Shown one piece after another: positions 5,810-21,244 of a stretch of 64,000 nucleotides of DNA. The notes beneath the pieces are model-generated. The model made no database searches and had not been told where the DNA came from. It was given only the letters and a program-made list of their open reading frames with translations. The stretch lies in assembly GCA_046292385.1 (NCBI GenBank), contig JBKBRF010000015.1, positions 70,726 through 134,725 of the forward strand. Direction: 5' to 3'. Every line of letters begins with the position of its first letter. The first letter of the stretch is position 1. The DNA comes from Armatimonadota bacterium (GTDB lineage Bacteria > Armatimonadota > SYMT01). Position numbers and translations under genes: made by a program.

Positions 5810-6526
5810 ATGACAAACTCAAGGAAGGCGGTCGTTCTGCTGAGCGGTGGGCTGGACTCGACGACCACTCTCGCGATCGCTCGGCAGCTAGGCTATGAAC
5901 TGTACGCTCTGACCTTCTATTATGGCCAGCGCCATGGATCCGAGATCGAGGCGGCCCGAGAGATCGCTCGCCGATACAGCGTTGCCGAACACGTGGTCGT
6001 CGAGATTGACCTACGCCTCTTTGGCGGATCGGCGCTGACAAGTGAACTCGAGGTCCCCAAGGGGCGTGCGCTGTGGGAGATCGGAGAGGGAGTCCCGGTG
6101 ACGTACGTGCCTGCCCGCAACACGATCTTTCTCTCCTACGCCCTCGCGTGGGCGGAGACTCTGGGTTCCAGCGACATCTTCATGGGCGTGAACACCCTTG
6201 ATTACAGCGGCTATCCGGACTGCCGACCCGAGTATGTGGCGGCCTTCCAGCATATGGCTAACCTCGCCACCCGGGCTGGAGTGGAGGGACGGCAGGAACT
6301 TCAGATCCACACGCCGCTGATCCATCTCAGCAAAGCCGAGATCGTCCGCAAAGGCGTTGAACTCGGGGTTGACTACGGCCTGACCCGTACCTGCTACGAT
6401 CCCTCTCCTCAAGGCGATGCGTGCGGGGCTTGCGATGCGTGTCTCCTGCGCCTTAAGGGGTTCGCCGAGAATGGCATGAACGATCCGGCACCCTACGCCG
6501 GCGCACTAGTTCCCGCATCCGCCTGA
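5810..6526 (+). CDS. queC: 7-cyano-7-deazaguanine (preQ0) synthase
   Basis: [10 protein letters not shown]-loop, [26 protein letters not shown]...CGACDAC Zn site. Confidence 0.96.
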
Positions 6527-7638
6527 GGCTGCTGTCCTTGGGCTGGGATACATGAGGTTGGGCCTCCCAGCGTCTCCGCCACCCGCTCAACCAGCGGCAA
6601 GTAGATGGAATTGTCCAGCCGGTCGCGGTAGTTCGCCTCGTACGTGCCTGCTGCGATCTGCTGGTCGATCCACTCCGCCTCTTGAAGCAGTACCCATAGG
6701 TTATGGGTGGCGCGGTGGCAGAATCCGGGTAGCTTGTCTGCCTTCAGGCCATCCACCCCGTGCTGCTGGCAGGGTGGGCAGACGCACTCAGCAAGCAGGT
6801 CCCACTCTCTCTCGTTGGGTTTACGCCCGCGCCAGCTTCCCATCTCGACTAGGGTGCGGTCGCCGCTTCCCGGCAACTGCACGATCCCGCGAGCCGCGCG
6901 GTTGCGCCAGCCGCAAGAATCGGCTGAATCGAACCCCAGTAAGGCGGCCAGGTGGAGGGTGGCGGTGCCACCTATGCCGAAGACGTGCAGTTGCTTGCCG
7001 GCCAGGACCTTCCGTGTATCTCCGAGCCCTTGAATCACCGCATCATATGCCATCGCCTTCTTGGCGCGGAGCAGGTTCGGCACGATGGCACCGAGAGCGA
7101 CATCCCCCTTGCGTGCGAGGTTCTCGTCCCCAAGTAGCTGCTCCAGGTACTCAGCGAGCAGAGGGCTGATGTGGATCACCGGAGCATAGCCGTCGTGTTC
7201 ATGCTGCCGGTTCATGGCCATCGTCTTGGTCAGACACTGCTTCTGCTCCTCATCACTCATGCTGGGGAGCGGGATAAAATCCTGGGCGATCGGCTTCCAA
7301 TCCGGCCCCGCCGCCTCGACAAAGCGCTGGTACTGCTCCACGTCCGTGGTTAGGCCCTTGGAAGAGAGATTGAATGCCCCGTTATCTAGAAAGATAGCCA
7401 CGCCCTTCGGCACGCCAAGGAAGTCGCGCAGGCCCTCCTTCATCGCTTGCTGTCGTTTCGGGGAATCGATATGCTCCGGCTCCTGATCTGGCTGGGTGGG
7501 TCGTGTTTGGTTGCGGGGAAACTCCGCATAGGAGACCATCAGAGCCTTCAGTGCCTCCAGAAAGTACGGCGAGTCTGGATCCCATACGGGCGGATGGAGG
7601 TTTCTGAGACTCAGCCCGGCGACGACCTGGATGCCCAC
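6493..7638 (-). CDS. Guanine transglycosylase-family (TGT/DpdA-like) protein
   Basis: FLDNGAF, QDFIP, LHVFGIG, FDSADS motifs, CVCPPC...HNL Zn site; GTG start overlaps the HerA stop by 1 nt. Confidence 0.8.
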
Positions 7639-9431
7639 TACCGCCGCCCCTCGGCGTTCAACTGCTCTCGCGCCTCCTCAAGAGCGACGAACGCGTCCGT
7701 CTCCTCGTGCTCTCCTTGCGACTGGGGCTGCTTGATACGCACTAAGACGGGGAAGTTAATGAACTGGCCCGACAGGAGCGCCTCTCCCACGTCCAGGTCA
7801 GGGAGCATCTTGGCGTCCTCCGCGCCAAGACTCTCAATCGACTTGCGAACAAAGGATTGATCATCGGGGTTCACCATCCGCATGATGATGAACGAGTTGC
7901 ACTGCGACAGGGTGGTCTCATCCAGCCGAGATGGGCGCTGACTGATCATCACCAGGCCGACACCAAACTTGCGTCCCTCCTGGGCGATTTGCTTGGTCGT
8001 GGTGATCGCTTGCTGCTCCGCTGCCGAGGCAGCCCGCGCTGGGGCGAAGTTGTGAGCTTCCTCTAGGACAAGTAGCACAGGCAACTTCAGATCGCCAGCA
8101 ACCCGGGCGCTGAAGATGGCGTCCGCAACGAGGCTGTAGATTGTCGCCTGAAAGTCGTCCGTATAGCCGGCAAGCGCGACGATGCTGATGCCTCCATATC
8201 GCACCAGATCAGTCCGATTTACCGGAAGCGGATTACTGTTCCGAGACACACGGCGGCTGATCTCTTCCATCTGCCGTAGCCGTTTCGCTCCACGCCTCAG
8301 GTTATTTGGGAAGCTCTCCAGCCAACCACCGGTCTGTCGGTTGATGCGCAGTTGCTCCCGTCCGCTCCATTCAATGAGCCGGTCCTTCGCGTCGGAATCG
8401 TCGGTCCGGGCCGCCTTGGCAACGGCTTGCACGAAATCGGCTAGAAAGTACAGATTGGGGCTCGGGCGGTACTGCTTGATGCGATCGTTCCCGAGATACT
8501 CGCTGAGCCAGATGGTGCGCTCCTCCAGCGCAGCGGCATCACCGATGAATGCTTTGGCACCCTGGAATAGGTCATCGAAAAGGCTGCGGTGGGTATTAGC
8601 CATCTGCCATCCCAACGCCTCGATAACTGAGGCAGCCGTTTCCGGTGCTTGCTCGAAGATTGGGAGTTGCGCGAAGTAACGCTGAACTCGCTGTGCGATT
8701 GCGGGAACATCCGCGAGTCCTGTGTAGTCGCCGTGGGGATCGAAGATCACCATCGGGTAGTTCTTCGCCGCCAACTGCTCGATGACCCGGCGAGCCGTCA
8801 CGCTTTTGCCGGCGCCAGTCATCGCTAGAATCGCTAGGTGCCGCGTGACGACTGCATGCCCGTCCACGCACACATCAACCTCGGGCCGGTTGGAGAGCGT
8901 GGCGACGTCGAGCGCCCTCGAAGTGTGCAGTCGCAGATCTCCCAGAACAACCCGAGCAATGTCTTCCGAGGCCGGACGGTAGGCACTGCTGGCGGGCTGT
9001 GGTGGGTAGCGAAGGTGATCAAGCCTCCCCCGACTCGATCCCTCGCATGGTTCGCTCCCCAACACCTGACAGACAGCGGTCACCATCTCGCGGCTCAGCG
9101 AGAGTACAGTGTCGAAGGGGTCCGTGCGCGTCGCTGCTAACTCATGTCCTGCTTCGGCGGGAAACAGAGGATTGAGCCGTTCGATGCGCTGGACCTTCGC
9201 CCAAACGCGGATAGTGGTTCCGGTGTCGCCGTCACCGACCTGACGCAATGTGGCGTCAACCGCAATGATGTCCTGCTCCTTGACCGCCTCGTGCGCGATC
9301 GCCAGTCTGAACTCGCGACTGGTGCTCTCACCGACAAGCGTTCCGACATACCGGTTGTTTTCTTCGTGCACTGGTTCCCTGGCCATGTGTGTGTCTGTAG
9401 CCGTTTCTAAGCTTCCGGGCGAAAGAGCCAA
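7638..9431 (-). CDS. herA: HerA-like helicase/ATPase (copy 1; start may be ATG 9386)
   Basis: N-terminal HAS-barrel-like region, HLAILAMTGAGKS, IFDPHGDY, LEEAHNFAP, EGRKFGVGLVMISQRPS, NPDDQ. Confidence 0.88.
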   Translation of the reverse strand: MALSPGSLETATDTHMAREPVHEENNRYVGTLVGESTSREFRLAIAHEAVKEQDIIAVDATLRQVGDGDTGTTIRVWAKVQRIERLNPLFPAEAGHELAATRTDPFDTVLSLSREMVTAVCQVLGSEPCEGSSRGRLDHLRYPPQPASSAYRPASEDIARVVLGDLRLHTSRALDVATLSNRPEVDVCVDGHAVVTRHLAILAMTGAGKSVTARRVIEQLAAKNYPMVIFDPHGDYTGLADVPAIAQRVQRYFAQLPIFEQAPETAASVIEALGWQMANTHRSLFDDLFQGAKAFIGDAAALEERTIWLSEYLGNDRIKQYRPSPNLYFLADFVQAVAKAARTDDSDAKDRLIEWSGREQLRINRQTGGWLESFPNNLRRGAKRLRQMEEISRRVSRNSNPLPVNRTDLVRYGGISIVALAGYTDDFQATIYSLVADAIFSARVAGDLKLPVLLVLEEAHNFAPARAASAAEQQAITTTKQIAQEGRKFGVGLVMISQRPSRLDETTLSQCNSFIIMRMVNPDDQSFVRKSIESLGAEDAKMLPDLDVGEALLSGQFINFPVLVRIKQPQSQGEHEETDAFVALEEAREQLNAEGRR

Positions 9432-10894
9432 TCCCGGTGCGTGATGTAGATCGCTTGGACCAGGATCCGGCGCATCTCCGCGTCACTCACGTCGCCGCGT
9501 TGGAGACTCACGCCAAGGTGGTACTTGATGAGCTTGCTGTAGGCATCGGTTAACCACGCTGGGACATGAGCGTATTTGTCAGCGGTGTCGAGACCCACGG
9601 GGAACCCATAGCCGGGGAGCAGCCGCGAGTAGAGATAGGCCCTGCGCGCTGCTTCGGTCACCTGATCCGTTCCCAGTTCCGGGAAGACCTCCACCCGTAT
9701 CGGGAGAGTGTTCTCCGATACCTGAACATAGCAGCCTTCCACCCGCGGAAAGCCAATCCGCCCCGGCCGGAGGGGGCTGAAGTCTACCCGGCTGGTCCCG
9801 GCTTCACCCGTGAGCGACACATCCCCGTGCCGGAGCCCGTCGTACTTGGGAATCTCCCAAGAGCTCGAGTATTCGCCCGTCCGAAGGAGCATGGCTAGCA
9901 AGAGCGCGTCCGTATACCCGAGCCGATCCAGCAACGCCTTGGGCGAGGTGAGATCCTTTCGCCCGTACATCTTGTTGAAGTAGTCGGCCTTTCCCAACTC
10001 GCGGAGCTTTCGGAACACGCGCTCCAGGAGGATCCGCTCCGAAAAGTCCCGCAGTTCCCCCCGTTCGACCACCCCCGCGATGATCGGGACAGGACGCCGA
10101 GAACGGGCGACGTGAATGAGCCGACGGTATAGGAACGCAATCCAAGCCAACGGTTCGAACAGTCTCCGGCGCGTCCACTCCTCGGCGCGATCCGTCATCC
10201 GTGGGTAAATGTCCAGATAGGCCTCCCGGAGAAACTCCTCCTTGAGCTGCTGCCCCGCGACGGGATCAGGGGCGTAGTGCTTAAGGAAGAGATCGACGTC
10301 GGCTTCGGTGAAGGGCGTGTGCCCGGCATAGCCACCCATCAGGTAGACGAGCGGCCCATGGTACATTAGGGCGCGGAGGTCCAGGTTTCGCTCGAGGGCC
10401 GACAATCCGCCTAATAGCTCCGCCGTGATCCGGACGATATCGACGAAGTCCTTTCGGGTCTTGCTCCCTCCCTCGAGGTCTCCCAGGATGACAGGGTAAT
10501 ATCCAAACTGCTCCCGCTCCTCCAGGCGGCGCTCACCAGTACGCACGCAATAGGACCCAACGCGCAGCAGGATTGGCACCTGACTGGATATCTGGACCCG
10601 TCCCACTCCGCCGTCGATGAAGGACACCACCTCGCCCTGCACGGAGCCCCAGCCTACCTCGCCGATCTGCTGGACCGGGAGCATTGGCTCAGCGGTACTC
10701 CCGCGGGCAGCGTTCTCAACGTCCCGGCGAAGGGCAGTGATGAATCGGGCGGTGTTCCGGAAGTAGTTGTCCCGAAGGCTCTCCGCCACGGTGAGCGCAT
10801 TCTCGGCCAGCCGGAACATTAGATGCGGCTGGCGCTGGAGGTCTTCCCTGACGCCGTCTTCCGTCAGTCGACGATCGCTGTGCGGATCACTCAT
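9407..10894 (-). CDS. nurA: NurA-like nuclease (copy 1, divergent active-site motifs)
   Basis: SFIDGG, YHGPL, GVVER, GYGFPVGLDTADKYA; directly upstream of HerA; ATGA overlap with the upstream gene. Confidence 0.7.
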   Translation of the reverse strand: MSDPHSDRRLTEDGVREDLQRQPHLMFRLAENALTVAESLRDNYFRNTARFITALRRDVENAARGSTAEPMLPVQQIGEVGWGSVQGEVVSFIDGGVGRVQISSQVPILLRVGSYCVRTGERRLEEREQFGYYPVILGDLEGGSKTRKDFVDIVRITAELLGGLSALERNLDLRALMYHGPLVYLMGGYAGHTPFTEADVDLFLKHYAPDPVAGQQLKEEFLREAYLDIYPRMTDRAEEWTRRRLFEPLAWIAFLYRRLIHVARSRRPVPIIAGVVERGELRDFSERILLERVFRKLRELGKADYFNKMYGRKDLTSPKALLDRLGYTDALLLAMLLRTGEYSSSWEIPKYDGLRHGDVSLTGEAGTSRVDFSPLRPGRIGFPRVEGCYVQVSENTLPIRVEVFPELGTDQVTEAARRAYLYSRLLPGYGFPVGLDTADKYAHVPAWLTDAYSKLIKYHLGVSLQRGDVSDAEMRRILVQAIYITHRDWLFRPEA

Positions 10895-11628
10895 GGCCGC
10901 CGCACCTCTAGGCCGAGTTGAACGAGCAACCGGCGGGCGTCGTCGGAGTGGAAAGCACTCACCGGGAGGCCGGTGATCCGGCTGACCAGCCACTTTGGCG
11001 CGACCCGCATCCCGTCGATTTCCACACACCACCCCTGAAAGCGTGCTGCTCCGGCGGGATCCTCTTGCAGCCCCGCTCCGGCCGCAGCCGAGACGAGATT
11101 CGGATTCCTGCTGACGTACACTCCCCGGAAGCGGATCGTGTCCGCCGCTGAGTCTACTCTCACCGTGGGAGGAACCGGCGCCCTGCCGTGGAGCCAGTCG
11201 TGAAGCATCGACAATCTTCTTCCGGAGGAGCCGGTCAGAATGCGCACTGGCACCCCGGTTGAGGCTACCGGGAATCCGGTCAGTGCGTCGAGGTAGAACT
11301 TTCCGACCGCGACACAGACCTCGTTCACCTCTTGCTCAACCACTACACGCTCAAGGGTCTCCACCGTCGTCCGCTGGAGTTCGTGGGCGCGATGGCGAGT
11401 CATCGTTCGATCGTACCACGGGATCAGCTTGTCTGCCGGGATCAAACCGAACTCCGCGGAGAGAATGTATAGCGCTGGTCGCCCGGTGCCGCCTGCACGT
11501 ATACCCTCGCGCAGGAATCGACGGACAAGGCGGAAGGATGGCCCGTCGTATCGCTCGACGGCCGGCAGGAGCGCTGTGTCAAGCCGCTTGCGTTCGCTAC
11601 ATCCAAGGATCAGGGCAGAGCCAGGCAT
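10891..11628 (-). CDS. DUF6884/YaaA-like protein with extra small C-terminal domain
   Basis: LILGCSERK, PAVERYDGPSF, YILSAEFGLI, IPWYDRTM; C-terminal VEIDG...PKWLVS..TG...FHSDDARRLL..LG; GAGGA RBS before ATG 11628. Confidence 0.7.
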   Translation of the reverse strand: MPGSALILGCSERKRLDTALLPAVERYDGPSFRLVRRFLREGIRAGGTGRPALYILSAEFGLIPADKLIPWYDRTMTRHRAHELQRTTVETLERVVVEQEVNEVCVAVGKFYLDALTGFPVASTGVPVRILTGSSGRRLSMLHDWLHGRAPVPPTVRVDSAADTIRFRGVYVSRNPNLVSAAAGAGLQEDPAGAARFQGWCVEIDGMRVAPKWLVSRITGLPVSAFHSDDARRLLVQLGLEVRRP

Positions 11629-11828
11629 CGAATCCTCTTGGCCAGACAGCAGGATTGTCGGCGTGAAACCGATCGCTCGTTTCTTCTGGGAGCAAAGGGG
11701 CCAGGGGGCTCCTCGGCGCACAACAAAAGAAATGGGCCGAGCGTGTAACACCCTGGCCCCTTCGCGACCATTCCGTAGTGGGGCCGACCAGGTGGCCCGT
11801 TTCAGGTCGTTGAGCGAGACAACTCCCG

Positions 11829-12467
11829 ATGCGTCCGCCATCCCTTCAAGAGCCGGATCTGAAGAGCGACACCCTCTCCCATGCGATCGAGCAGGAGATG
11901 TCCTCGCTCATGGCCGGCATTCGGGTCCTGGTGTCGCGTTCCGGCCTGGCGACAGGCGCGGCAGAGATCGAGTCTCTGGCCGAAGACACCTTTCAGGATG
12001 TCGTCCTCAAAGTGATGGCCCACCGGAACGCCTACAATGAGGGGCGTCCGCTCCGTCCCTGGTTCATGAAGTTCGTCGTGAACCATCTCAAGAACCTGCG
12101 CGGCAGCAGGAAGCGTCGGAGCGCCACGGTGACACCCGTTGCCGAGACCCGCCGAGTTCGAGCGGCGCTTGCCACGTCCGAGGTGGGCGCAGACGATCTC
12201 TCAGAAGCCGAGATGTTCGACCTGCTCGCGCAAGGGTGCGGCTCGCAGCCCCCCGGGGACGCGGGCTGGAACATGCTGATTTCCCTAGCGCTGGAGCGGG
12301 ATCGGGAGATCCTGACGATGCGGTTCCGGTATGGGTTGGAGTATGCGGAGATCGGGCAGGCGCTGGAGATCACCGCCGGGACAGCCCGCACGCGCGTCTG
12401 CCGCGTCCTGGAGCGCCTGCGTCAGGCCTACCGGGAGAGCGAGCGCTTCGCGGGAGGAGGGTCCTGA
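11829..12467 (+). CDS. ECF-type sigma-70 factor
   Basis: Region 2 AEDTFQDVVLK...LRPWF; region 4 DREILTMRFRYGLEYAEIGQALEITAGTARTR. Confidence 0.88.
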   Translation: MRPPSLQEPDLKSDTLSHAIEQEMSSLMAGIRVLVSRSGLATGAAEIESLAEDTFQDVVLKVMAHRNAYNEGRPLRPWFMKFVVNHLKNLRGSRKRRSATVTPVAETRRVRAALATSEVGADDLSEAEMFDLLAQGCGSQPPGDAGWNMLISLALERDREILTMRFRYGLEYAEIGQALEITAGTARTRVCRVLERLRQAYRESERFAGGGS

Positions 12468-12468
12468 G

Positions 12469-13080
12469 ATGCACAAGCCGATGGATGCAGATACGCTCCG
12501 ACGTGAGCGGCTTGCCTACCGGTACGTCCGTGCGCTGGACCGGGGGGACCTCGAGGACGTCGAGGCGGTTCTAGAGGCGGCGATGGACGATCCGCTGCTT
12601 TCCCATGCGCTTTCCGAGATTGACCTCGCCTATCAGGACGAGCTATCCCTGGTTCCAGCTCCTGCAGACGTACGATTGGTACGAGAGCTGCTGCGAAAAC
12701 ACTTCAATAGCGCCGGCTCGGATGAGGCTGAAGAGGAGTTAGCGGAAGAGCCGCTGACTGTGAGCGATGTAGCCGTGCGCCTGCAGCACGAGAAGCGCGT
12801 CCCTGCCGGAGATCGTGAGGCCAACCGGCGTCTCCTTGGCAGCCATCTCGTGGTCCCGGGCTTTCTGAATTTAGAGGCCGTCCGACAGCTTGCGCGGGAA
12901 ACCGGTGTGGAGGCCAGCGAGCGCTTCTGGCGGCTCTTCCGAGAGACGGCCATCATGCTGGGCATCGGCCGCAGCCATCAGCAATCGCAAATGGCAGCGG
13001 CGCGGGAGCAGCGGCATAAGTCACAAGCAGCGAAGCCACCGTCGCAGTTGAGGTCCCAGTGCGAGGAGATACAGGAATGA
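12469..13080 (+). CDS. Uncharacterised soluble protein in the anti-sigma position
   Basis: GGAGG RBS, starts 1 nt after the sigma stop, ATGA overlap with the next gene; no obvious TM segment. Confidence 0.75.
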   Translation: MHKPMDADTLRRERLAYRYVRALDRGDLEDVEAVLEAAMDDPLLSHALSEIDLAYQDELSLVPAPADVRLVRELLRKHFNSAGSDEAEEELAEEPLTVSDVAVRLQHEKRVPAGDREANRRLLGSHLVVPGFLNLEAVRQLARETGVEASERFWRLFRETAIMLGIGRSHQQSQMAAAREQRHKSQAAKPPSQLRSQCEEIQE

Positions 13081-13868
13081 GTCAAACTCTCGGCTCGCAG
13101 CCTCGGTGCCGCCGGATCGCCGACGCCATTCACTGCGTGTATGCCGATGCGGGCCTCGCCCCGACCGCCGGGCGCCCGGGTGCCACTCGGCTGATTGTGC
13201 CGTTGTACGAGCTGATCAACGCCTACCCTCTGCGGGTCGCGGAGATCCGCAATCTGACCTATGGGTCCGCCCGAGAGTTCCTGCTAACGGAAACCCAGCA
13301 GGAAGTGCCGGTTCCCGAGAACAGCGGATGCCCCCTGGCCGGTTTTCTATACATCTATCGCTACGCCGGGTTCTTCTACGGATGCGTGCTCCTGGAGCAA
13401 GGGGACCCTGTATCCAGACGGCGGTTCTCCGCGGCGCATGAACTCGGGCACTACCTGCTGCACTTCCTGCCGCTGCTCCGGGAGTTGGAAGGCCAGGCGG
13501 CACGCCCCTGCGTCATCACGGAAGGGCTCGCCGTGTCAGCAGACCCGGATGCTGCACCACCAGTGGGTGAGGTTCGGTTCACAGAGTCCTTTGGGGCTGC
13601 AGCGACACAGCCCGTTCTTGACCGAGAGGTCATGGAGGACGAAGCCAACGAGTTCGCCGCGGAACTGCTGATGCCGGAACCGGCCGTCCGGCTGATGGCG
13701 GATCGCTATCGTCGCGAAACCGGGGCGCGGCGCCAAGTGTTGGCGCGGCGGCTGGCACCCGAGTTCCTGGTGAGCCGCCAGGCAATGATCCGGCGGCTCG
13801 AGACACTGGGACTACCCACGGCCCAGCGTGTGCCGGGAACCGTCGGTTCGGGGCTGGCGGGAGAGTGA
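13077..13868 (+). CDS. ImmA/IrrE-family Zn metallopeptidase
   Basis: RRRFSAAHELGHYLLH (HExxH), EDEANEFAAELLMP, C-terminal HTH-like LAPEFLVSRQAMIRRL. Confidence 0.92.
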   Translation: MSQTLGSQPRCRRIADAIHCVYADAGLAPTAGRPGATRLIVPLYELINAYPLRVAEIRNLTYGSAREFLLTETQQEVPVPENSGCPLAGFLYIYRYAGFFYGCVLLEQGDPVSRRRFSAAHELGHYLLHFLPLLRELEGQAARPCVITEGLAVSADPDAAPPVGEVRFTESFGAAATQPVLDREVMEDEANEFAAELLMPEPAVRLMADRYRRETGARRQVLARRLAPEFLVSRQAMIRRLETLGLPTAQRVPGTVGSGLAGE

Positions 13869-13872
13869 CGCG

Positions 13873-14916
13873 ATGGGCCTGAGCGACTTCATTCAGAACT
13901 ACGGCGGTCGTCGGGTAGACGAATATGCTCAGCAGCCATCTCTTGAGGGGGAGCCTGCTGACGACAGCGAAGAGCCCGAGGATGCCGAAGGTCTGGACTA
14001 CGAGGTTCCGCGCGAGGATTGGGACGCGGTGGACCTCGACCTGCCGGACGGCTGGAGGGTGGGCGACTGGGACGACCGCCCGATCCGCTTCGTCGACGGG
14101 AAGGACATAGGGGAGACCGTCGCGTGGCTATGCGCTCCGGGTGGCTATCCCGTGCCGGTGCGGCTCTCGCAGATCGGCGGAGTGGTGGTTCGGCTGATCA
14201 ATGGCGAGTGCCGACGCGAGTTCGTGGTCGTGGACAAGGTTGTTTCGATGGTGGCGGACCTCTTTCCGTGGGATGAGGTCGAGAGTTTCGCTGCCGAGCT
14301 TCAGGAGAACGGCTTCCGCCTTCTTCCGGCGCAGCCACCAGAAAACCGCCCTTCCTATGGTTTTGAGAAGATGCGTAAGGCAGCCCAGAACCGCTCGAAC
14401 GACGAGATGGGGGTCCTCGAGGAGGCGGTCTTGGCGCAGGACCCGGGTGTGCCCACCATCGTGGATGGCCGCCTCGAGCCCCGCATCGGGGGTTTCGATC
14501 CGCACGAGCCGGTTTTCGGAGTGGTGAAGCGGCACCACAAGAACTACCTCCATCCGGTAGGCATGCAGCTTCTGTATCAGTTGGAGCCAGGCCAGCGAAC
14601 CCCAGTGTTCCGACTGCCTGGTCGCTTGGAAGTGGTCTCCTGGTACGTGCGCCTCGCCGGCGGTGCCGGGTCGATGCCGAACTGGGGCCTGGTTCGGGTG
14701 GAGGCACCGCGGCTGTGGTTTGAACGGCGGGCAAGGGACTGGAGCCTGGTGGACCGGCTTTCGCACACGCTTCGCGAATACCGCTGCCGCGACGCCAGCT
14801 ATGCGCGAGCGCCCGTTTCTCTCCATCCGATTGTGCGTGCGGAGGAGAGTCTTGGGTCTCTGTTCCATCCAGGCAGCTTGCTGACCCATCGGTTCTACCG
14901 ACTGACAGCTCTGTAG
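13873..14916 (+). CDS. nurA: NurA-like nuclease (copy 2)
   Basis: RFVDG, IVDGRL, GVVKRH, SWYVRL, RAPVSLHPIVRAEESL; upstream of a HerA-like ATPase. Confidence 0.75.
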   Translation: MGLSDFIQNYGGRRVDEYAQQPSLEGEPADDSEEPEDAEGLDYEVPREDWDAVDLDLPDGWRVGDWDDRPIRFVDGKDIGETVAWLCAPGGYPVPVRLSQIGGVVVRLINGECRREFVVVDKVVSMVADLFPWDEVESFAAELQENGFRLLPAQPPENRPSYGFEKMRKAAQNRSNDEMGVLEEAVLAQDPGVPTIVDGRLEPRIGGFDPHEPVFGVVKRHHKNYLHPVGMQLLYQLEPGQRTPVFRLPGRLEVVSWYVRLAGGAGSMPNWGLVRVEAPRLWFERRARDWSLVDRLSHTLREYRCRDASYARAPVSLHPIVRAEESLGSLFHPGSLLTHRFYRLTAL

Positions 14917-14927
14917 ACGCGAGGAGG

Positions 14928-16841
14928 ATGACGATGAGCGAAGAAGTGCACGTCCAGACGCTGGATACGGTGGATGGGGATTTCCGCAATGACGGTCGCT
15001 CGGACAACACCGGACAGGCTGCCGGAATGCCTGAGGAAGCCGCTGGAGGCCCCACGATCATAGTCCAGGCAGGCACCCATGAGATCGGGAAGGTCGCCTC
15101 ACCCCCGCAGCGGGAGTCGACGCCGGACCAATTCTACTTCTGGATTGACCGCGAAGAACTGGTCGAGCGGACCCAGATCGTCCGTACGCAGAGCCGGGTG
15201 GGCGGCCAGGAGATCGACTTCTACGGCATCGTGGATGAAGTGTACCGTCAGAGCCGCAGGCGGAGCATCGGGGAAGAGGCGGACGTATCCGATCAGGATG
15301 TCTCGTACGATCCTCCGTTCGCCGGGGAAGGCGTCACCTTCGCTCAGGCCAGCATCCTCCGTGCGGAGCCGCCGGTCCTGACCCCACCGCGCGAGCAGAG
15401 CCGCGTGTACCTCGGAGGCGAGTTTGAGGCACGCCTAGCCTACGGAGCCGATGAGATCGAGAATCCGCTTCCGGTAGGGCTGGTGAAGAACGGTGGGAGC
15501 GTAGTGGCAGGTCCTGGAGTAATCGACCTGGACTACCTGCTCGGCGTGAACGGCGGACACATGAACGTGAACGGAGTAGCAGGGCGCGGGACGAAGTCCA
15601 GCTTCCTCCTCTTCACCATCGCTATGCTGCTCCGCGAGGTGCGACAGCGCGCCGCGGAGGCGCCGTCCGATCCGAACCCGCTGCTGGTAGTGCCGATCGT
15701 GCTTAACGTGAAAGGCTACGACCTTTTCTACATCGACCGCTGGAGCCGCCGTTACGATCCTGATCGGGATCTGGCGGATTGGAGAGCGCTTGGCGTGCAG
15801 ACCCCGGTCCCGTTCCAGGGAGTCGAGTTCTACGCTCCCCAGCAGCCCGGTAACACGACGCCCGTGCCAATCCAAGGGAGGGGTGATGTCCAAGCGTATA
15901 GCTGGAGCCTGTCAGATGTCATCGAGAGCGGTCTGCTTCTCTATCTCTTTTCGGACGAGGACAGCCGGGATGCCAACTTCAGTGCCCTCGTGCTGGACAT
16001 CGAGGAGCGTCTGACGGTGGAGACGCCGCAGCCAGATGGGACACTCCGGCGGCGACTTCGCGAGGAGGGACTTCCAGCTACGTTTCAGGAGTTGCTGGAT
16101 TGGGTCGCCGGGCCCGGACAGAGCCTGCTCGGAGGTCACCACGCTGGGACTTGGGGGAAGCTGCGCCGCCGCCTCGTGAAGTTGGTGATCGAAGGAGATG
16201 GGGTCCTGCGGCGCAATGACCGTACCGGCAACCCCCTGGCCGTGGCCCGGCGGGAGACGTGCGATCCGATTGTGGTGGACCTGAATGCACTCACGCGGGT
16301 GCCGTCGCTCCAGCGGTTCGTGGTTGCAACGATCTTACGGCAGCTGGTCGACGCCCGCACCGGGCCGAACGCGGTCCGTGGATTGGTCTATGTGGTCGCC
16401 CTCGACGAACTGAATCGATTCGCTCCGCGGGGCTCGCGCGACCCGATCACCCAATTGATCGAGCAGGTCGCGGCCGAGATGCGTTCCCAGGGAATCATCT
16501 TGCTGGGCGCGCAGCAGCAGGCCTCGAAGGTCTCTGAGCGGGTCATCGAAAACGCCAGCATCCGTGTTCTGGGCCGCAGTGGAAGCCTGGAGCTCTCCCA
16601 GCCGGTGTGGAGCTACCTCAGCAAGAGCGGACGCCGAAAGGCTGAGACGCTGAGCGTGGACGAGAAGCTCGTTCTTCAGGACAACTTCCGCGAGCCGATG
16701 CACGTGCGTGTTCCGTTTCCGTCCTGGGCGATGAACCCGCGCGAGACTGCGCCGACGCCTGCTGACTCTGCGACTCCAGCGCTGCCTCCCGGTCCAATCG
16801 GCGAGAGCGCTCAGGCGGAAGACGACATCGAGACGTTCTAA
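14928..16841 (+). CDS. herA: HerA-like ATPase (copy 2, bacterial GxxGxxTKS type)
   Basis: N-terminal HAS-like barrel, HMNVNGVAGRGTKSS, NVKGYDL, LDELNRFAP, RSQGIILLGAQQ. Confidence 0.82.
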   Translation: MTMSEEVHVQTLDTVDGDFRNDGRSDNTGQAAGMPEEAAGGPTIIVQAGTHEIGKVASPPQRESTPDQFYFWIDREELVERTQIVRTQSRVGGQEIDFYGIVDEVYRQSRRRSIGEEADVSDQDVSYDPPFAGEGVTFAQASILRAEPPVLTPPREQSRVYLGGEFEARLAYGADEIENPLPVGLVKNGGSVVAGPGVIDLDYLLGVNGGHMNVNGVAGRGTKSSFLLFTIAMLLREVRQRAAEAPSDPNPLLVVPIVLNVKGYDLFYIDRWSRRYDPDRDLADWRALGVQTPVPFQGVEFYAPQQPGNTTPVPIQGRGDVQAYSWSLSDVIESGLLLYLFSDEDSRDANFSALVLDIEERLTVETPQPDGTLRRRLREEGLPATFQELLDWVAGPGQSLLGGHHAGTWGKLRRRLVKLVIEGDGVLRRNDRTGNPLAVARRETCDPIVVDLNALTRVPSLQRFVVATILRQLVDARTGPNAVRGLVYVVALDELNRFAPRGSRDPITQLIEQVAAEMRSQGIILLGAQQQASKVSERVIENASIRVLGRSGSLELSQPVWSYLSKSGRRKAETLSVDEKLVLQDNFREPMHVRVPFPSWAMNPRETAPTPADSATPALPPGPIGESAQAEDDIETF

Positions 16842-16871
16842 TCGGCGCCTCGGCCACTCCAGAGGGAAGTC

Positions 16872-18107
16872 ATGCGGATCCTGCACACAGCTGACTGGCA
16901 TCTGAACAACCGGCTCGGCCGAATTGAGCTGCAACCGAACATCCGGGCGCGGCTTGAGGAGATCGCCGCCATCCTGCGGGGGGAGAAGATCGACGTCATG
17001 GTGGTAGCCGGCGACCTGTTCAGCCACTTCACGCGGATGGATGAACTGCGGACCGCTGTCCAAGATGTGAACCGCATCTTCAAGCCGTTCCTGATGGACG
17101 GCGGGACGATCGTAGCGATCAGCGGCAACCATGACAATGAGGCACTGTTCCAGATGCTCCGGCTAGCGATGGATCTGGCCTCGCCGATCAATCCCAAGGA
17201 CAGTGGACCGCGCCCGCCCGGGCGCCTCTATCTAGCGGCTGATCCGACGTATTTGCTGCTGGCCGACCGAGACGGAAACCCGGTTCAGTTCGTGCTGCTT
17301 CCCTATCCCACTGCCGCCCGCTACCTTCGAGACGAGCAGACGCGTTACGGGAGCCTGGACGAGAAGAATCAACGCCTCCACGGCGCACTGCTGAGCAGAT
17401 TAGAGCAGATCCAGGCTACGCGCATCCGGCCCAAGCTCCCAAGCGTTCTCGTCTCTCATGTCCACGTGCGCGGCAGCACGATCCACACTACCTACCAGAT
17501 CAGCGAACGAGAAGACGTGATCTTCGAGCAAGGGGAGATTCCCGTCCATTGGGCTTATGGCGCCTACGGCCATATCCATAAGTCCCAGGCACTCGACGGT
17601 ACAGGACACATCCGCTACGCCGGGAGCATCGAACGCTTCGACTACGCCGAACGAGAAGACGAGAAGGGTGTGGTCGTGGTCGAGGTGGGTAGGCAGGGTC
17701 GCGTCGGTTCGCCGCAGGTCATCCCCCTCGATGCAACTCCGATCCACCGCATCGAACTCGAGATCGAGGATCCAGAACGCGACCTTTCGATCCTGAAGGA
17801 CCAGTACTCCGCGGAAGCCACTCGAGCGCTCGTCTCCTATCGGGTTGTTTACCGACCTGGCGAGCACGACCGAGATGCTATCCGGAGGGAAATCGAGCGA
17901 CTGTTCCCGTTTTGGTACGCCGGCGAAGCCGTGCCGGCCGGTTCGGCGCTGAGTGGAAGCCCGATCGACCTGCCCTCGCAGCCGCGCGATGTCCTGGGCA
18001 CCGTCCAGGAGTATTTGCGCTCGCAGGTGCCTGCGGAGGACCGTGACCGCGAGGCGCTGCTGGTCTTGGCCGAGCAGTTGTGGCTGGAGAGGGGGGTAGA
18101 GGTATGA
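16872..18107 (+). CDS. sbcD: SbcD/Mre11 metallophosphoesterase nuclease
   Basis: HTADWH, AGDLF, SGNHD, HVHV, GHIH, YAGS motifs. Confidence 0.93.
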   Translation: MRILHTADWHLNNRLGRIELQPNIRARLEEIAAILRGEKIDVMVVAGDLFSHFTRMDELRTAVQDVNRIFKPFLMDGGTIVAISGNHDNEALFQMLRLAMDLASPINPKDSGPRPPGRLYLAADPTYLLLADRDGNPVQFVLLPYPTAARYLRDEQTRYGSLDEKNQRLHGALLSRLEQIQATRIRPKLPSVLVSHVHVRGSTIHTTYQISEREDVIFEQGEIPVHWAYGAYGHIHKSQALDGTGHIRYAGSIERFDYAEREDEKGVVVVEVGRQGRVGSPQVIPLDATPIHRIELEIEDPERDLSILKDQYSAEATRALVSYRVVYRPGEHDRDAIRREIERLFPFWYAGEAVPAGSALSGSPIDLPSQPRDVLGTVQEYLRSQVPAEDRDREALLVLAEQLWLERGVEV

Positions 18108-21100
18108 TCCCGGTGCGCGTGACACTTGAAGGCTTCCTAAGCTATCGAGAGAGGCAGACGTTGGAGTTCGACGGCTCCTCGCTTTGGGTACTGGCCGGAC
18201 CAAACGGCGCGGGCAAGTCCGCGATCTTCGACGCGATAACCTTTTCCCTGTTCGACACCCATCGATTGGGCAGGCAGCGAGCGGACGAGCTGATCAATCA
18301 CCACTGCGATAGCCTGGAGGTGGAGTTTGATTTCCTGGGTGAGGGCACGCTCTATCGCGTCCGGCGCACGGTTCGCCGTGTGGGCCGAGGACTGCGCGCC
18401 ACCCGCGAGGCCTTCCGTCTTACTGCCACTGATGAGGGGAAGGTTTCCGTTGATCCGATCCCCGGGACTGACGCGGAAGAGGGATTCAGCAGATGGATCG
18501 CCAGGACCATCGGTCTGAACTACGATGCGTTCACGTCGTCCGTGCTACTCCTCCAGGGGCAGAGCGAAGAGCTGTTGAAAGCCGCCGGCAAGAAGAAGGC
18601 CTACGAGATTCTCAAGCAACTGATCGATCTCTCGCCCTACGAGCAGTTGCATGTGCTTACAGACGCTCGCCGGAAGCACTGGGATGGGCAAAAGAAGGGA
18701 TGGACGAACACCCGCGACGGCATCGCTCCGGTAAGTGACGAGGCGCTGGAGGCAGCGGAGAAGGAGCTTCGAGCCGCAGTGGAGGTGTGGACGAAAGCGC
18801 AAGAAGCGGTCGAGCGGCTGACGGCGCTCGCGCAGCAGGCGAAGCAGTGGGAGCAGCTCTCCGGCGATCTACAGAAGCTCGAGGGAGAGATCCGAGTGGC
18901 GCGTGACCTTCTGGCGCGGGAGGAGGAGATCGTACGGAACTTTGCCCGGCTTGAGGAGCTGGAGCGGGTATTGCCGATGCTCGGTTCCATACTGGCGGAG
19001 CGCGGACGACTTGACAAGCAAGAGTCAGAATCTGAGGAGCTTGAGCAACAGTTACCCGGCCTGGAAAGTGCCCTTCAGCAAGCGGAAGCTGAACACCAGC
19101 AGACGACCGAAAAGGGGGAGCGAGTCGCGAGCCGGATCACTGATCTTCAAGCAAAGCGCGCGGAGGTCTCTCGGCGTGTCGCCGACATCGCGCCGCTGGT
19201 TACGCGGCTGGAGCACTGGGAGACTGTTCTCCAGGGTTTGAAGGAAGTCGAGGAGCAACTGGGACAGTTCCCGTCTGACTTGGCGGAGCAACTGGAGGCG
19301 GCGCGACAGAGGGACCGTGCGCTGGAGGAGGCCGAGAAGTCCTTCCCATGGCTGCGTAGCCTCACGGAAGCCCGTGAGGGGCTAGCAGGAGCATTGGGGC
19401 GGCTGAAAGCGGCGAGCGACCGGCTGCAAGAAATCGAAGCCGCCCTCAAGGGCGTGAAACAGGCGATCGGGGAGCAGTCTACACGGGTCGAACAAGCGCG
19501 AGCGGAAGTCTCGAAGATGGACGTGGTGGTTGGCCGTGCCAAAGAACGCTGCGATCAGGCACGCGAGCGCCTGGAGCTTTTCCTGGATGCCGCCACGGAA
19601 CGCGTCTGCAGCCTATGCGGTCAACAGATCGACGAGACGCATGTAGCAGACGAGCGCCAGCGCCTGGAAACGGCCACTGCAGCTGCTGCGGCCGAAGTCG
19701 AAGACGGAGAAGCCGCCTTGGTAGAGGCGCGGGGCACGCTGGGGACCGAGCAAGCTGCGCTAGCGGACCTCCAGCAGCAGGCCGATAGCCTGGAGAAGGA
19801 TCGCCAGAAGGAAGAAAGAAAGCGTGACCGAGCGGAGCAGGACGCGCGGCAGCACCGCGGCCAGCTCACCAGCGCTTATGGCAACCTCTCACCAGGGTAC
19901 CGCGCACGAGTCGCTGCTGCGGCTCCGCAGGATGACGCCACCTGGCTCGCCGCCTCGTTTTCGAATGAAAACGACCTGCAAACCGCCGCGGGGGAGGCAG
20001 GCGCGCGGACGCACCACCGGCTGCACCTGAACGGGTTGGAACAGCAGCAACGCGGCAGGGAGCGGCTGGACGACCGGCGCCAGCATCTGGAAGACCAACG
20101 CCAGGAGCTGGAGAAGTCGGTTAACGTGGAGGGTATGCGAGAGGCTCGTGCCGAGAAGCCGTTACTTGAGGAGCGCCAGCAACTACTTGACGACGAGCTC
20201 GGTCGTGCCTCAAAGGAGCAGGAGGCCGCGAAGAAGGCGCTTGAAGCGGCAACACGAGCGGTTGACAGTGCTCGCCAACAAAGGGATCGTCATGCGCAGA
20301 AGCTTACGACGGCTATTGCGACCCGCGAGGAGATACGCCGCAACGTGACTGGGGCGGTCCAGAAGCTGGAAGAGAGCTGGAGGGACCTAGCCCTGGCAGC
20401 CGATGAGGCGAAGCTCAACGAGTACCAGCTCGAGAAGAAGGCCCTCGCACCGGCCCGCGAAGAGAAGCGAGCGGTGGACAGTGCCCGTGACGCGCTTGCA
20501 GGTTTGCAGAAGCGGGCTACCGAGCTCGAGGAGAAGATTGGCAGTCTCCCCCGTGAGGCGCGGCGGGCGTCCACCGAAGTGGATGCGGAGCTAAACGTGG
20601 CTCGCGCTGGGCGCGACGGCGCTGACGAGTGCCGCCGCCACGCGGACGGGCGCTACAAGGAACTGCAAGACCGCAAGCAGCGCCGAGAAGCTGCCGAGGA
20701 GAAGCTGCGGACGGCAGAGCGCCAGCACTATCTCCACAACCGCCTGACGCAGTTACTTGGTCGTGAAGGTCTGCAGCTCTCACTGTTGCGCCGAGCGGAG
20801 CGCGGCATCGTGGATCTGGCAAATGAGACCCTGGAGGGCTTGTCACGAGGTCGCCTGCACCTTGAATTGCGGAGCGATGGAGCATCCGACTCGGCGCTGG
20901 ACTTGGTGGCCTACAACCTCGACACCGGACCCAAACCCGTTGCTGTGGCTCTGAACAGCGGTAGCCAAAAGTTCCGAATCGCCGTCAGCCTGGCGCTCGC
21001 CATCGGGCGCTATGCCGGGTTGGAGGCCCGCCGGATCGAGTCGGTCATCATCGACGAGGGCTTCGGCAGCCTCGACCGGAACGGCCGCGATGACATGATC

Positions 21101-21244
21101 CAGGAGCTACACGAGTTGAAGCAACATCTTCAGCGGATCATTCTCGTGTCCCATCAGGAAGAGTTCACCGGTGCCTTCGCTAATGGATACGGGATCGCCC
21201 TCGAAAACGGCGGCTCTCGCGTTAGCTTGCTTGAGTGTGGGTAG
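18104..21244 (+). CDS. sbcC: SbcC/Rad50 SMC-family ATPase
   Basis: GPNGAGKS, LLQGQ, long coiled coil with central CSLC zinc hook, SGSQKFR signature, IIDEGFGSLD, VSH; ATGA overlap with sbcD. Confidence 0.93.
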   Translation: MIPVRVTLEGFLSYRERQTLEFDGSSLWVLAGPNGAGKSAIFDAITFSLFDTHRLGRQRADELINHHCDSLEVEFDFLGEGTLYRVRRTVRRVGRGLRATREAFRLTATDEGKVSVDPIPGTDAEEGFSRWIARTIGLNYDAFTSSVLLLQGQSEELLKAAGKKKAYEILKQLIDLSPYEQLHVLTDARRKHWDGQKKGWTNTRDGIAPVSDEALEAAEKELRAAVEVWTKAQEAVERLTALAQQAKQWEQLSGDLQKLEGEIRVARDLLAREEEIVRNFARLEELERVLPMLGSILAERGRLDKQESESEELEQQLPGLESALQQAEAEHQQTTEKGERVASRITDLQAKRAEVSRRVADIAPLVTRLEHWETVLQGLKEVEEQLGQFPSDLAEQLEAARQRDRALEEAEKSFPWLRSLTEAREGLAGALGRLKAASDRLQEIEAALKGVKQAIGEQSTRVEQARAEVSKMDVVVGRAKERCDQARERLELFLDAATERVCSLCGQQIDETHVADERQRLETATAAAAAEVEDGEAALVEARGTLGTEQAALADLQQQADSLEKDRQKEERKRDRAEQDARQHRGQLTSAYGNLSPGYRARVAAAAPQDDATWLAASFSNENDLQTAAGEAGARTHHRLHLNGLEQQQRGRERLDDRRQHLEDQRQELEKSVNVEGMREARAEKPLLEERQQLLDDELGRASKEQEAAKKALEAATRAVDSARQQRDRHAQKLTTAIATREEIRRNVTGAVQKLEESWRDLALAADEAKLNEYQLEKKALAPAREEKRAVDSARDALAGLQKRATELEEKIGSLPREARRASTEVDAELNVARAGRDGADECRRHADGRYKELQDRKQRREAAEEKLRTAERQHYLHNRLTQLLGREGLQLSLLRRAERGIVDLANETLEGLSRGRLHLELRSDGASDSALDLVAYNLDTGPKPVAVALNSGSQKFRIAVSLALAIGRYAGLEARRIESVIIDEGFGSLDRNGRDDMIQELHELKQHLQRIILVSHQEEFTGAFANGYGIALENGGSRVSLLECG

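Follow-up and report, generated by a model that had tools for sequence, protein, structure and literature searches.

A 64,000-nucleotide stretch of an Armatimonadota bacterium genome (assembly GCA_046292385.1, contig JBKBRF010000015.1, positions 70,726 to 134,725), hereafter the window, contains twelve closely packed genes at positions 5810 to 21244. They encode the preQ0 synthase QueC, a tRNA-guanine transglycosylase (TGT)-like enzyme, a DUF6884 protein, two NurA-HerA pairs, SbcD and SbcC, and a sigma factor followed by an unnamed protein and an M78 metallopeptidase. The question that this locus raises is whether these genes form one system, which the initial annotation proposed as a new 12-gene unit, and what such a system would do. 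We found that the TGT-like enzyme and the DUF6884 protein are a constant core around interchangeable nuclease/motor modules, and that the locus is composite rather than a single obligate unit of 12 genes. That it modifies DNA and acts in defence we infer from the sequence. The reading that we favour, which we regard as an even call, is a Dpd-like 7-deazaguanine self-marking system that works without DpdB and with novel effectors, within a composite, horizontally acquired DNA-conflict system.

The twelve genes, their order, coordinates and overlaps were confirmed by Pfam, NCBIfam and PADLOC searches and by reading the junctions (Table 1). The left operon, on the minus strand, reads DUF6884>NurA>HerA>TGT-like, with an ATGA overlap between the DUF6884 and NurA genes and a TAGTG overlap of the HerA stop with the TGT start. 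The convergent queC and TGT-like genes overlap by 34 bp at their 3' ends. The right operon, on the plus strand, reads sigma>unnamed gene>M78>NurA2>HerA2>SbcD>SbcC with intergenic gaps of -4 to 30 bp and with further ATGA overlaps between the unnamed gene and M78 and between SbcD and SbcC. The 200-bp divergent spacer between the operons, also described earlier, is present in the sequence. The three family databases name every gene except the unnamed gene and the second NurA-HerA pair.

A constant core with interchangeable effectors

We scanned one genome per species (185,579 species) for relatives of the TGT-like enzyme and obtained 117 stretches; 80 of them were analysed and, with one more from our phylum sample, make up 81 loci, which were typed by tblastn with the window proteins and by de novo clustering of open reading frames (ORFs). 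The loci come from many phyla, and a DUF6884 gene is present in 58. The order DUF6884>NurA>HerA>TGT was found in 34 loci (type A). Type B, DUF6884>HerA-like>540-aa protein>TGT, accounts for 18 loci; its 540-aa protein gives a weak NurA match (PF09376, 4.7e-4, 20.2 bits against a cut-off of 21), and hhalign found no match between it and the NurA of pair 1 (NurA1; probability <1%). Four loci (type D) have the order DUF6884>Z1-domain protein>TGT, and ten (type C) contain the right-hand operon, including L016, at whose edge a fragment of a type-A HerA (74% identity) remains. A single locus, L055, is of type A+C with both. The remaining loci show only HerA at a contig edge (five) or no recognised effector (nine, six of which extend less than 1 kb upstream of the TGT gene).

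We built a quick maximum-likelihood tree from 80 TGT sequences. In it, loci of different effector types are interspersed, with 29 label changes against a minimum of five; the tree follows host taxonomy and places the window sequence on a long branch. Three near-identical Microcoleus TGTs are of types A, B and A. A putative marking core that stays constant while its effector is freely swapped therefore points to a restriction-modification-like design. An AIPR protein lies just after the TGT gene in L020 (type D), and the Z1 protein is weakly similar to MzaC, a component of the MZA anti-phage system. Z1 and AIPR proteins are partners of DNA methylases, and their presence thus fits a TGT-DUF6884 pair standing where a methylase would. 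The TGT family is rare, being found in 2 of the 401 genomes of the phylum sample, in one of 72,556 plasmid records and at one locus in 2.9 million viral contigs.

Two further observations concern the effectors. In L054, one of the loci with no recognised effector, a 1447-aa protein with PD-(D/E)XK and SF1 helicase parts (5035-9378, minus strand) lies beside a divergent DUF6884/TGT pair; it matches the PLuB helicase-like NCBIfam model at 8.5e-35, below the cut-off, and may be a fifth effector type. In another genome (G050), a NurA1 homologue with 55% identity was found on contig C218 (720-2171), and the TGT-like query matched nothing in this genome. As the assembly is 93% complete in ~400 contigs and the homologue lies near a contig end, this may reflect a gap in the assembly or a NurA1 that occurs in the absence of the core.

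The two operons also recur together. Besides the window, both occur in two genomes (L055 and L016) and in a metagenome (L162), each in a different gene order, so that these composites appear in four gene orders. Their co-occurrence elsewhere thus speaks in favour of the earlier proposal, but the single 12-gene system resolves into a 4-gene cassette, an autonomous 7-gene module and queC. In addition, the 7-gene module (C module) is the sole effector between or beside TGT and DUF6884 in at least eight genome loci (L011, L018, L021, L030, L057, L062, L065 and AP018313), several of which are a one-strand gene string. In AP018313.1 (L166, Aulosira laxa NIES-50 plasmid6), nine consecutive same-strand genes run from DUF6884 and sigma through SbcC to TGT (1580-13056). 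This operon takes up ~11.5 kb of a 40,278-bp mobilizable plasmid, and its genes are annotated as hypothetical except for one 'putative exonuclease'; L062 and Tolypothrix tenuis PCC 7101 plasmid5 have the same 40,278-bp length. Other orders are DUF6884>TGT>sigma... (L142, L154) and TGT<DUF6884<|>sigma... (L123, L144). Among 80 loci seeded with the HerA of pair 2 (HerA2; see below), eight contain TGT and/or DUF6884, which is far above chance because the TGT family is so rare in the phylum sample, although this estimate is informal and related loci are not independent. We read the C module as one of several effectors usable by the marking core, which in the window has been added to a complete type-A system.

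Judged from its family profile and its model, the TGT-like enzyme is a catalytically intact member of the TGT superfamily that forms a clade of its own and does not qualify as a DpdA. The profile matched ArcTGT (1iq8, 1.4e-8) and DpdA (7ui4, 4.4e-5) in the PDB. The AlphaFold2 (AF2) model (pLDDT 84) has 1iq8_A as its best Foldseek match (2.4e-11, TMq 0.66), followed by bacterial and human TGTs, and DpdA is not among the best 50 matches listed. D85 (LDNGAF), D120, D240 (DSxDSSGW) and a zinc site of the form C-x-C-x-x-C...H (C285, C287, C290, H312) are invariant in all 20 aligned members; D85, D240 and the zinc site align with the corresponding ArcTGT positions in the profile alignment. The ~350-aa protein covers residues 69-334 of the 582 residues of ArcTGT and has no counterpart of its C-terminal domains. 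The NCBIfam DpdA model NF041059 gave 18.7 bits against a cut-off of 200, which places the enzyme outside that family, and the PADLOC DpdA model reached 8.1e-5 only. Among 8000 candidates scored, 1412 clusters matched at E 1e-5 or better, typically at ~55% identity, and their source names are tRNA-ribosyltransferase or hypothetical. A canonical Tgt is encoded elsewhere in the genome, on contig C86.

The second core protein had been described without reference to DpdC, and the initial annotation saw no dpdC in the locus. This has to be revised. Among 24 DUF6884 sequences, C10, K14 (CxxxK), L56 and S57 do not vary, the remaining positions A58 and G61 of the LSAxxG motif are at least 90% conserved, and the C-terminal domain of ~90 aa is also conserved. 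In PADLOC, the DpdC models matched weakly and partially (5.1e-5 and 8.6e-4), and the candidate family PDC-M57A matched at 6.1e-8. The profile found nothing meaningful among PDB sequences (best 0.024, an unrelated protein), and Foldseek of the AF2 model (pLDDT 89) gave no match at E 0.001 or better. In a wide search of 48,161 chains with VIA-align, the best fold match was YaaA (5caj_B, Z 10.2, root-mean-square deviation (rmsd) 3.5 Å over 148 residues), followed by AF0587 (2q07_A, 'unknown function', residues 257-392; Z 9.7, rmsd 3.3 Å over 119 residues), with the next row at 7.0. AF0587 may belong to the archaeosine-synthase (ArcS) neighbourhood; if this is right, one fold would act on the preQ0 nitrile in tRNA and DNA alike.

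The Pfam authors likened DUF6884 to YaaA and described a cleft that binds DNA as well as a flipped base in a model (PMC11701544). In a survey of dpd islands, the entry 'DUF6884, e.g. dpdC' is listed (PMC12235509), and another paper assigns DpdC to DUF328/PF03883, the YaaA family (PMC12839542). DpdC converts preQ0-DNA to ADG-DNA independently of DpdA/B (PMC10164549). We consider a DpdC-family protein to be present because the DUF6884 protein passes the Pfam cut-off and has the conserved motifs, its predicted fold is YaaA-like, and DpdC has been assigned to the same Pfam family.

The 7-deazaguanine idea gains support from the genes found next to the core. A queuosine-precursor (preQ0/preQ1) transporter gene (PF02592 1.1e-54; TIGR00697 146 bits against a cut-off of 51) adjoins it in 13 of the 81 loci and, by tblastn, QueC does so in five. 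In the genome of the window, the island QueC is the only full-length copy. No full QueC was found in six genomes of the same family and one of the same order (69-97% complete), which contain only partial PP-loop matches in long ORFs; a full QueC is present in 6 of 13 other genomes of the phylum. Therefore, QueC looks like cargo that arrived with the system. In four of the 81 loci, a DUF366 gene (PF04017, 9e-61, no NCBIfam name) is co-oriented beside the transporter or the DUF6884 gene (L019:1855-2430, L025:3-671, L031:1654-2370 and L055:1016-1624), and it may encode a further deazaguanine-handling enzyme.

Table 1 Features of the locus and of its surroundings in the window
Feature	Position	Strand	Evidence or remark
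queC, preQ0 synthase	5810..6526	+	PF06508 252 bits, 3.6e-75; TIGR00364 200.5 bits, cut-off 150.3
TGT-like transglycosylase	6493..7638	-	PF01702 29.5 bits, cut-off 26.3
HerA pair 1, HerA-type hexameric DNA translocase	7638..9386/9431	-	start 9431 (TTG) or 9386 (ATG)
NurA pair 1, 495 aa	9407..10894	-	PF09376 32.2 bits, cut-off 21
DUF6884 protein	10891..11628	-	PF21818 38.3 bits, cut-off 30
Divergent spacer	11629..11828		200 bp; weak promoter-like motif copy 11742-11783 (+)
ECF-type sigma-70 family factor	11829..12467	+	TIGR02937 52.9 bits, cut-off 42.9; Sigma70_r4_2 3.1e-9; r2 weak
Predicted soluble anti-sigma factor (unnamed gene)	12469..13080	+	no known family; fold prediction with sigma
M78 (IrrE/CapP-like) zinc metallopeptidase	13077..13868	+	PF06114 55.2 bits, 8e-15; PADLOC capP 1.3e-16; HELGH
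NurA pair 2, bacterial-type	13873..14916	+	no Pfam match itself; profile (24 homologues) to 7f6d_H 2e-8
HerA pair 2, bacterial-type	14928..16841	+	no Pfam match; profile (7 homologues) to 7f6d_B 3.1e-72, positions 58-616
SbcD/Mre11 nuclease, accessory copy	16872..18107	+	TIGR00619 93.1 bits, cut-off 77.65
SbcC/Rad50 ATPase, long coiled coil	18104..21244	+	AAA_23 1.2e-16; SMC_N 2.8e-14; SbcC_Walker_B
T4 coupling protein	1076-2659		upstream of integrase
Replic_Relax	2652-3494		upstream of integrase
Tyrosine integrase	4035..5207	+	PF00589 1.4e-35; island context, outside the system
STAND-like NTPase, 1588 aa, C-terminal TPR repeats	21900..26666	-	weak AAA_16, TPR; TPR_END_plus 8.6e-12

The right operon and its predicted switch

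The two NurA-HerA pairs named in the initial annotation are both genuine, since the family profiles of pair 2 match the D. radiodurans NurA and HerA (7f6d) and pair 1 is recognised by Pfam. In each pair, a NurA-domain nuclease adjoins a HerA DUF87/FtsK-type ATPase, with pair 2 being of the bacterial Deinococcus type. HerA of pair 1 (HerA1) matches PF01935 (82.8 bits, cut-off 23.2; 4.9e-23), PADLOC HerA models (up to 1.7e-60) and also PADLOC mad8 and DndH, and it remains under the NCBIfam HerA equivalog cut-offs (164 vs 970). NurA1 is unusually conserved, with 55-77% identity across phyla in 35 of the 81 loci. Among the 120 NurA2 homologues listed, three carry a precomputed PF09376 assignment and one is named NurA by NCBI. 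By hhalign, HerA2 matches HerA1 with a probability of only 67% (E 5e-5), and no match was obtained between NurA2 and NurA1 (probability <1%). Downstream, an SbcD phosphoesterase is followed by an SMC-like SbcC ATPase with a coiled coil, as is characteristic of SbcCD/Mre11-Rad50; the SbcC gave 136 bits with TIGR00618, under the cut-off of 478.5, and its translation contains a C-x-x-C stretch in the middle of the coil. A second full-length SbcD on contig C66 scores better than the island copy.

A metagenome scan seeded with HerA2 yielded 291 relatives, of which 80 loci were analysed; many contigs end early, and the counts are therefore lower bounds. NurA2 and SbcD are each present in 70 of these loci and SbcC in 59, and 54 contain NurA>HerA>SbcD>SbcC together. 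The switch genes are less frequent, with the M78 peptidase in 44 loci, the unnamed gene in 34 and sigma in 21, and all seven genes are found in 18. TGT and/or DUF6884 accompany the module in 4 of the 26 loci with both flanks visible. The right operon is thus a 7-gene module in its own right, which is mostly found alone and frequently has defence genes around it. The bacterial NurA>HerA>SbcD>SbcC set by itself is a conserved four-gene unit (L085-L164; window 13873-21244).

For 20 of the 22 stand-alone modules whose two flanks are both visible, the flanking genes were scanned (114 of 148 ORFs). The flanks contain Cas1/Cas4/Cas3, Cas_GSU0054, Wadjet and type I restriction-modification genes, together with Mrr, NgoFVII, REase-ARP and GIY-YIG nucleases, TIR, DUF4007 and MTES_1575 proteins, transposases and integrases. 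Housekeeping flanks were found at four of the 20 (L092, L103, L129 and L141). In the phylum sample, HerA2 matches occur in 92 of 401 genomes; 12 of them, including the genome studied here, are close (at least 47% identity), and the others are 24-35% identical and spread family-wise.

The first three genes of the right operon are predicted to form a regulatory switch. The unnamed protein gave no Pfam, NCBIfam or PADLOC match, and neither a hydrophobic segment nor a known anti-sigma domain was found in it. When it was co-folded with the sigma factor (alignments of 18 and 21 rows), the ipSAE was 0.85 (runs 0.86, 0.85 and 0.85), the best of three controls reached 0.00, and the pLDDT of the partner was 68-69. 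The ipSAE mark is reached by 58 of 80 solved complexes and by 2 of 110 mismatched pairs, which with custom alignments is only a rough guide, and part of the score may reflect likeness to the solved sigma/anti-sigma complexes that exist. In the model, residues 2-61 of the unnamed protein contact residues 26-91 and 165-195 of sigma, which correspond to regions 2 and 4 according to Pfam. Clamping of these two regions is the usual mode of anti-sigma factors. Consistent with this, the unnamed gene product is predicted to be the anti-sigma factor of the neighbouring sigma.

The predicted anti-sigma factor is conserved in 18 loci, including its C-terminal half, and this conserved C-terminal domain may be the target of the M78 protease. 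An IrrE/CapP-type switch in the strict sense, in which an M78 protease cleaves an adjacent helix-turn-helix (HTH) repressor, was not found, as the adjacent protein has no HTH match. The CapP-like M78 next door and the conserved C-terminal half nevertheless suggest regulated proteolysis by analogy with CapH/CapP and DdrO/IrrE, where such proteolysis operates.

A promoter-like motif with the consensus cTGTAAGAaTTT ... GGCAATTaTATA was found 5' of sigma in 19 of 21 loci, which belong to several phyla. Its leave-one-out total is 353, whereas 30 mononucleotide shuffles averaged 53 and did not exceed 84; related loci inflate the total. We scanned the window and eight related loci with a position weight matrix for a second site, and nothing at 12 or above was found in the window, L016, L142 and L162. 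Two loci have tandem copies of TGTAAG..TTT then GGCAATT.TATA ~95 bp apart (L065:278-319/372-413 and L062:412-453/507-548), and by eye L122 apparently has two copies as well.

A possible mechanism and its rivals

We infer that the substrate of the core is DNA, that the mark protects self DNA from the end-loading nucleases and that the protease senses damage or infection. In this mechanism, the island QueC, whose family assignment is firm, would supply preQ0 in a lineage with no detected QueC of its own, and the TGT-like enzyme, which has the fold and the catalytic residues, would exchange a DNA guanine for preQ0. As there is no DpdB, HerA may provide the ATP-driven DNA handling. The DUF6884 protein, by its family and fold, would then flip out the inserted base and convert the nitrile, most simply to the amide dADG. 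NurA1-HerA1 would load on DNA ends and degrade unmarked DNA. The right-hand module would be kept silent by the anti-sigma factor, of which the contact with sigma is predicted and the remainder argued by analogy. By the same analogy, the IrrE/CapP-like M78 protease would cleave the anti-sigma factor on sensing DNA damage or infection, and the freed sigma would drive NurA2-HerA2-SbcD-SbcC as a second, inducible end-degrading machine.

Several observations weigh against this mechanism. NurA-HerA and SbcCD act on DNA ends, and we know of no way in which they could be halted by a base mark. The TGT-like enzyme is nearer to the tRNA enzyme ArcTGT than to DpdA, by sequence as well as by fold. Most of the 81 loci have no precursor gene nearby, and for the rest of the preQ0 pathway this genome shows only one PTPS/QueD-family gene (C48) and a QueE-like ORF on C56, which is a full-length match to TIGR03365 below its cut-off; TIGR04508 (QueE) and PF02592 (YhhQ) matched nothing in the genome. 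Housekeeping as well as defence genes flank the TGT-seeded loci. The core is missing beside the C module in 72 of the 80 HerA2-seeded loci, and the module therefore needs no deazaguanine mark to function. The motif copy in the window is weak (<12 in leave-one-out) and is a candidate only. Finally, none of the 14 proteins searched matches ParB, DndB or DpdB in Pfam, PADLOC or NCBIfam, and no such cluster was seen among the conserved families of the 81 loci, in agreement with the earlier remark that no dpdB is visible; the Salmonella DpdA needs DpdB (PMC10164549).

Among the other explanations, the one with a lesser but real likelihood is that independent systems are stacked here, the left operon with queC being complete and the right operon being a separate end-degrading defence or repair module that merely lies next to it. 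Type A is indeed complete without the right operon in 34 loci, the right operon lacks TGT and DUF6884 in 72 of the 80 HerA2-seeded loci (in 22 when only the 26 with two visible flanks are counted), and it has its own sigma factor and promoter-like motif, of which no second copy was found before the left operon. Against full independence, no effector other than the C module accompanies the core in at least eight genome loci, several of them one-strand gene strings, the adjacency recurs in at least five gene orders and several phyla, and 8 of 80 C modules adjoin a gene family found in 2 of the 401 genomes of the phylum sample. We consider it unlikely that the locus is cargo for the repair or tolerance of DNA damage, in which the TGT-like enzyme and the lesion-binding YaaA-like protein exchange or process damaged guanines, the nucleases resect breaks and an IrrE-like protease provides induction. 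IrrE is a damage-response protease, and among proteins of solved structure, pair 2 is most closely related to the NurA-HerA repair proteins of D. radiodurans. Distant HerA2 relatives (24-35%) are spread family-wise in a housekeeping-like manner (92 of 401 genomes, 12 close), and 4 of the 20 scanned stand-alone C modules have housekeeping flanks. YaaA acts in peroxide stress, and abasic lesions are bound by YfjM, a member of DUF6884 (PMC11701544). However, the preQ0 transporter and QueC linkage has no role in guanine repair, the distribution is patchy and mobile and includes the 40-kb plasmid, the effectors are exchanged with Z1 and helicase-nuclease restriction-type proteins, the genome already holds another SbcD, and defence genes flank most of the scanned stand-alone C modules.

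Quite improbable, in our view, is a modification-dependent system directed at phages with 7-deazaguanine DNA, in which the TGT-like and DUF6884 proteins would detect or remove the phage bases dPreQ0, dADG or dG+ and pass the lesions to the nucleases. Such phage DNA is common, base exchange by TGTs is reversible in principle, and the DUF6884 family has been modelled flipping bases out of the helix (PMC11701544). Against this, sensing or erasing a mark would not require preQ0 to be supplied, but QueC or a transporter is encoded beside the core, and the core pairs with Z1/AIPR-type partners, which are companions of modifying enzymes. We give least credence to the idea that the TGT-like enzyme acts on tRNA or another RNA, for example during infection, with the nuclease genes linked only indirectly. 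By sequence and by fold, it is matched best by enzymes that act on tRNA (ArcTGT, 1.4e-8 and TMq 0.66; bacterial and human TGTs), and many members are named tRNA-ribosyltransferase by JGI. However, the ~350-aa protein lacks the C-terminal domains of ArcTGT, all conserved partners are DNA enzymes, a canonical Tgt is already present on contig C86, and DUF6884/DpdC acts on DNA (PMC10164549).

The favoured self-marking reading invites comparison with known systems. The initial annotation knew of no described system with this architecture, and we found none either: PADLOC-DB v2 (2023) has no system model for the locus, matching it only with generic HerA, weak DpdA/DpdC and the candidate family PDC-M57A, and the full-text literature searched (few subscription journals, main texts only) holds no description of TGT with DUF6884 and NurA/HerA or of the seven-gene module, the nearest being BRC (BREX-related capture). 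Dpd, the 7-deazaguanine restriction-modification system of Salmonella Montevideo and others, likewise combines an enzyme of the TGT superfamily with a protein of the DUF6884/DpdC family. It too has a link to genes for preQ0 supply (QueC, YhhQ), is carried on genomic islands and has its marking genes adjoining ATP-dependent DNA motor and nuclease genes. Unlike Dpd, the locus has a TGT of a separate clade, no DpdB/ParB-like ATPase and, among its 12 genes, no DpdD-K domains (SNF2/DEAD helicases, PLD nuclease); the effectors across the related loci are instead NurA-HerA, HerA/NurA-like, Z1, or SbcCD with NurA-HerA, one set having a sigma/anti-sigma/M78 switch. BRC, which comprises HerA/FtsK, GNAT and TGT with PglZ, BrxC-like, BrxB-like and DUF4007 proteins (PMC12839542), also combines a HerA/FtsK-type translocase with a TGT homologue and has been proposed to use a 7-deazaguanine self-mark without DpdB. 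None of PglZ, DUF6079/BrxC, STAND-BrxB, DUF4007 or GNAT is encoded by the 12 genes here. BRC is reported without DpdC, whereas the DpdC-family protein is constant here, and the available text of the BRC description does not mention NurA, Mre11 or SbcC (PMC12839542).

Pair 2 is a clear relative of D. radiodurans NurA-HerA (7f6d), and the four nuclease and motor genes of the right operon recall the archaeal herA-mre11-rad50-nurA operon, since they stand together in 54 of the 80 HerA2-seeded loci. In contrast to the Deinococcus and archaeal sets, this set is mobile and patchy, lies mostly in defence-gene neighbourhoods, has an M78 gene in 44 of 80 loci (all seven genes in 18) and is sometimes joined to the TGT core. 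As in CapH-CapP of CBASS and in DdrO-IrrE, the M78 gene directly follows that of its presumed substrate and precedes the genes to be switched on. What it would cleave here, however, is presumably not an HTH repressor but a soluble anti-sigma factor that, according to the model, clamps an ECF-type (extracytoplasmic function) sigma; cleavage would therefore activate a dedicated sigma rather than lift repression. A HerA motor coupled to an effector is also known from Sir2-HerA, DUF4297-HerA and DndFGH/MADS, but the effector here is NurA, and the modifiers are TGT/DUF6884 and not methylases or Dnd proteins. We thus read the TGT clade, the absence of DpdB, the interchangeable effectors and the type of switch as new, and 7-deazaguanine marking of a restriction-modification-like sort as of a known kind.

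A broader claim can be made, which we regard as doubtful: that one mark-writer, the TGT-like enzyme with the DpdC-like protein, represents a large unnamed self-marking family plugged into at least five unrelated nucleases, that the mark is a Chi-like do-not-degrade signal, and that the seven-gene module is the first defence operon run by IrrE/CapP-type anti-sigma proteolysis. If the self-marking reading is true, 7-deazaguanine DNA marking would extend far beyond the Dpd islands and work without DpdB, reaching Cyanobacteria, Chloroflexota, Planctomycetota, Acidobacteriota, Bacteroidota, Deinococcota and others, and access of a TGT to duplex DNA would become testable with a 4-gene cassette. Bacterial NurA-HerA and accessory SbcCD would gain a defined role and a means of self/non-self discrimination, the bacterial NurA-HerA-SbcD-SbcC set would be established as a conserved unit, and the sigma/anti-sigma/M78 logic would join the damage-sensing switches of CBASS and Deinococcus. 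As cultured, non-pathogenic carriers exist, the chemistry can be checked directly; candidates are Tolypothrix tenuis PCC 7101 and Aulosira laxa NIES-50 (type C, on the 40-kb cyanobacterial plasmid), Calothrix PCC 7103, Chlorogloeopsis fritschii PCC 6912 and Adhaeribacter aerolatus NBRC 106133 (type A with QueC).

The mobile island and the host genome

The window is the end of a 134.7-kb contig in a genome of 7.04 Mb (91 contigs, 98% complete). The locus lies in a low-GC island that extends from about contig position 60000, ~10 kb left of the window, to about window position 27000, with a GC content of 0.61-0.65 against 0.68-0.71 outside. The initial annotation placed it in a tRNA-integrated element. 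The only tRNA of the window and of the whole contig, a tRNA-Arg at window position 54463, lies 27 kb beyond the right edge of the island with the core genes PolA, ScpA and PBP5 in between, and a search for attachment sites found no exact direct repeat of at least 16 bp between the right edge and 46 kb leftward. Because the tRNA is distant among core genes and the edges have no direct repeat, integration at a tRNA is unsupported.

The large neighbour of the right operon had been called Avs-like, which was not confirmed: PADLOC gave no match at 1e-3 for the 1588-aa STAND-like protein, and beyond the weak domain matches in Table 1 its nearest atlas clusters are NACHT/nSTAND at 0.86, which serve as a lead only. 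No relative of it was found in any of the 161 related loci. Between it and SbcC, a 161-aa ORF (21311-21796) was considered as a gene and left out, as it has neither a family match nor relatives at the related loci.

On its left side, the island (contig C15 50000-69999, L084) encodes an N6/N4 DNA methylase, a Rep_O-like protein, a HerA/FtsK-like ATPase and an SSB, and the same stretch also contains a 1254-aa RHS-repeat protein, a C39 peptidase and a LuxR regulator. The closest relatives of the island genes are from Gemmatales and other phyla. The core genes of the contig include DUF1559 proteins, which are typical of Planctomycetota.

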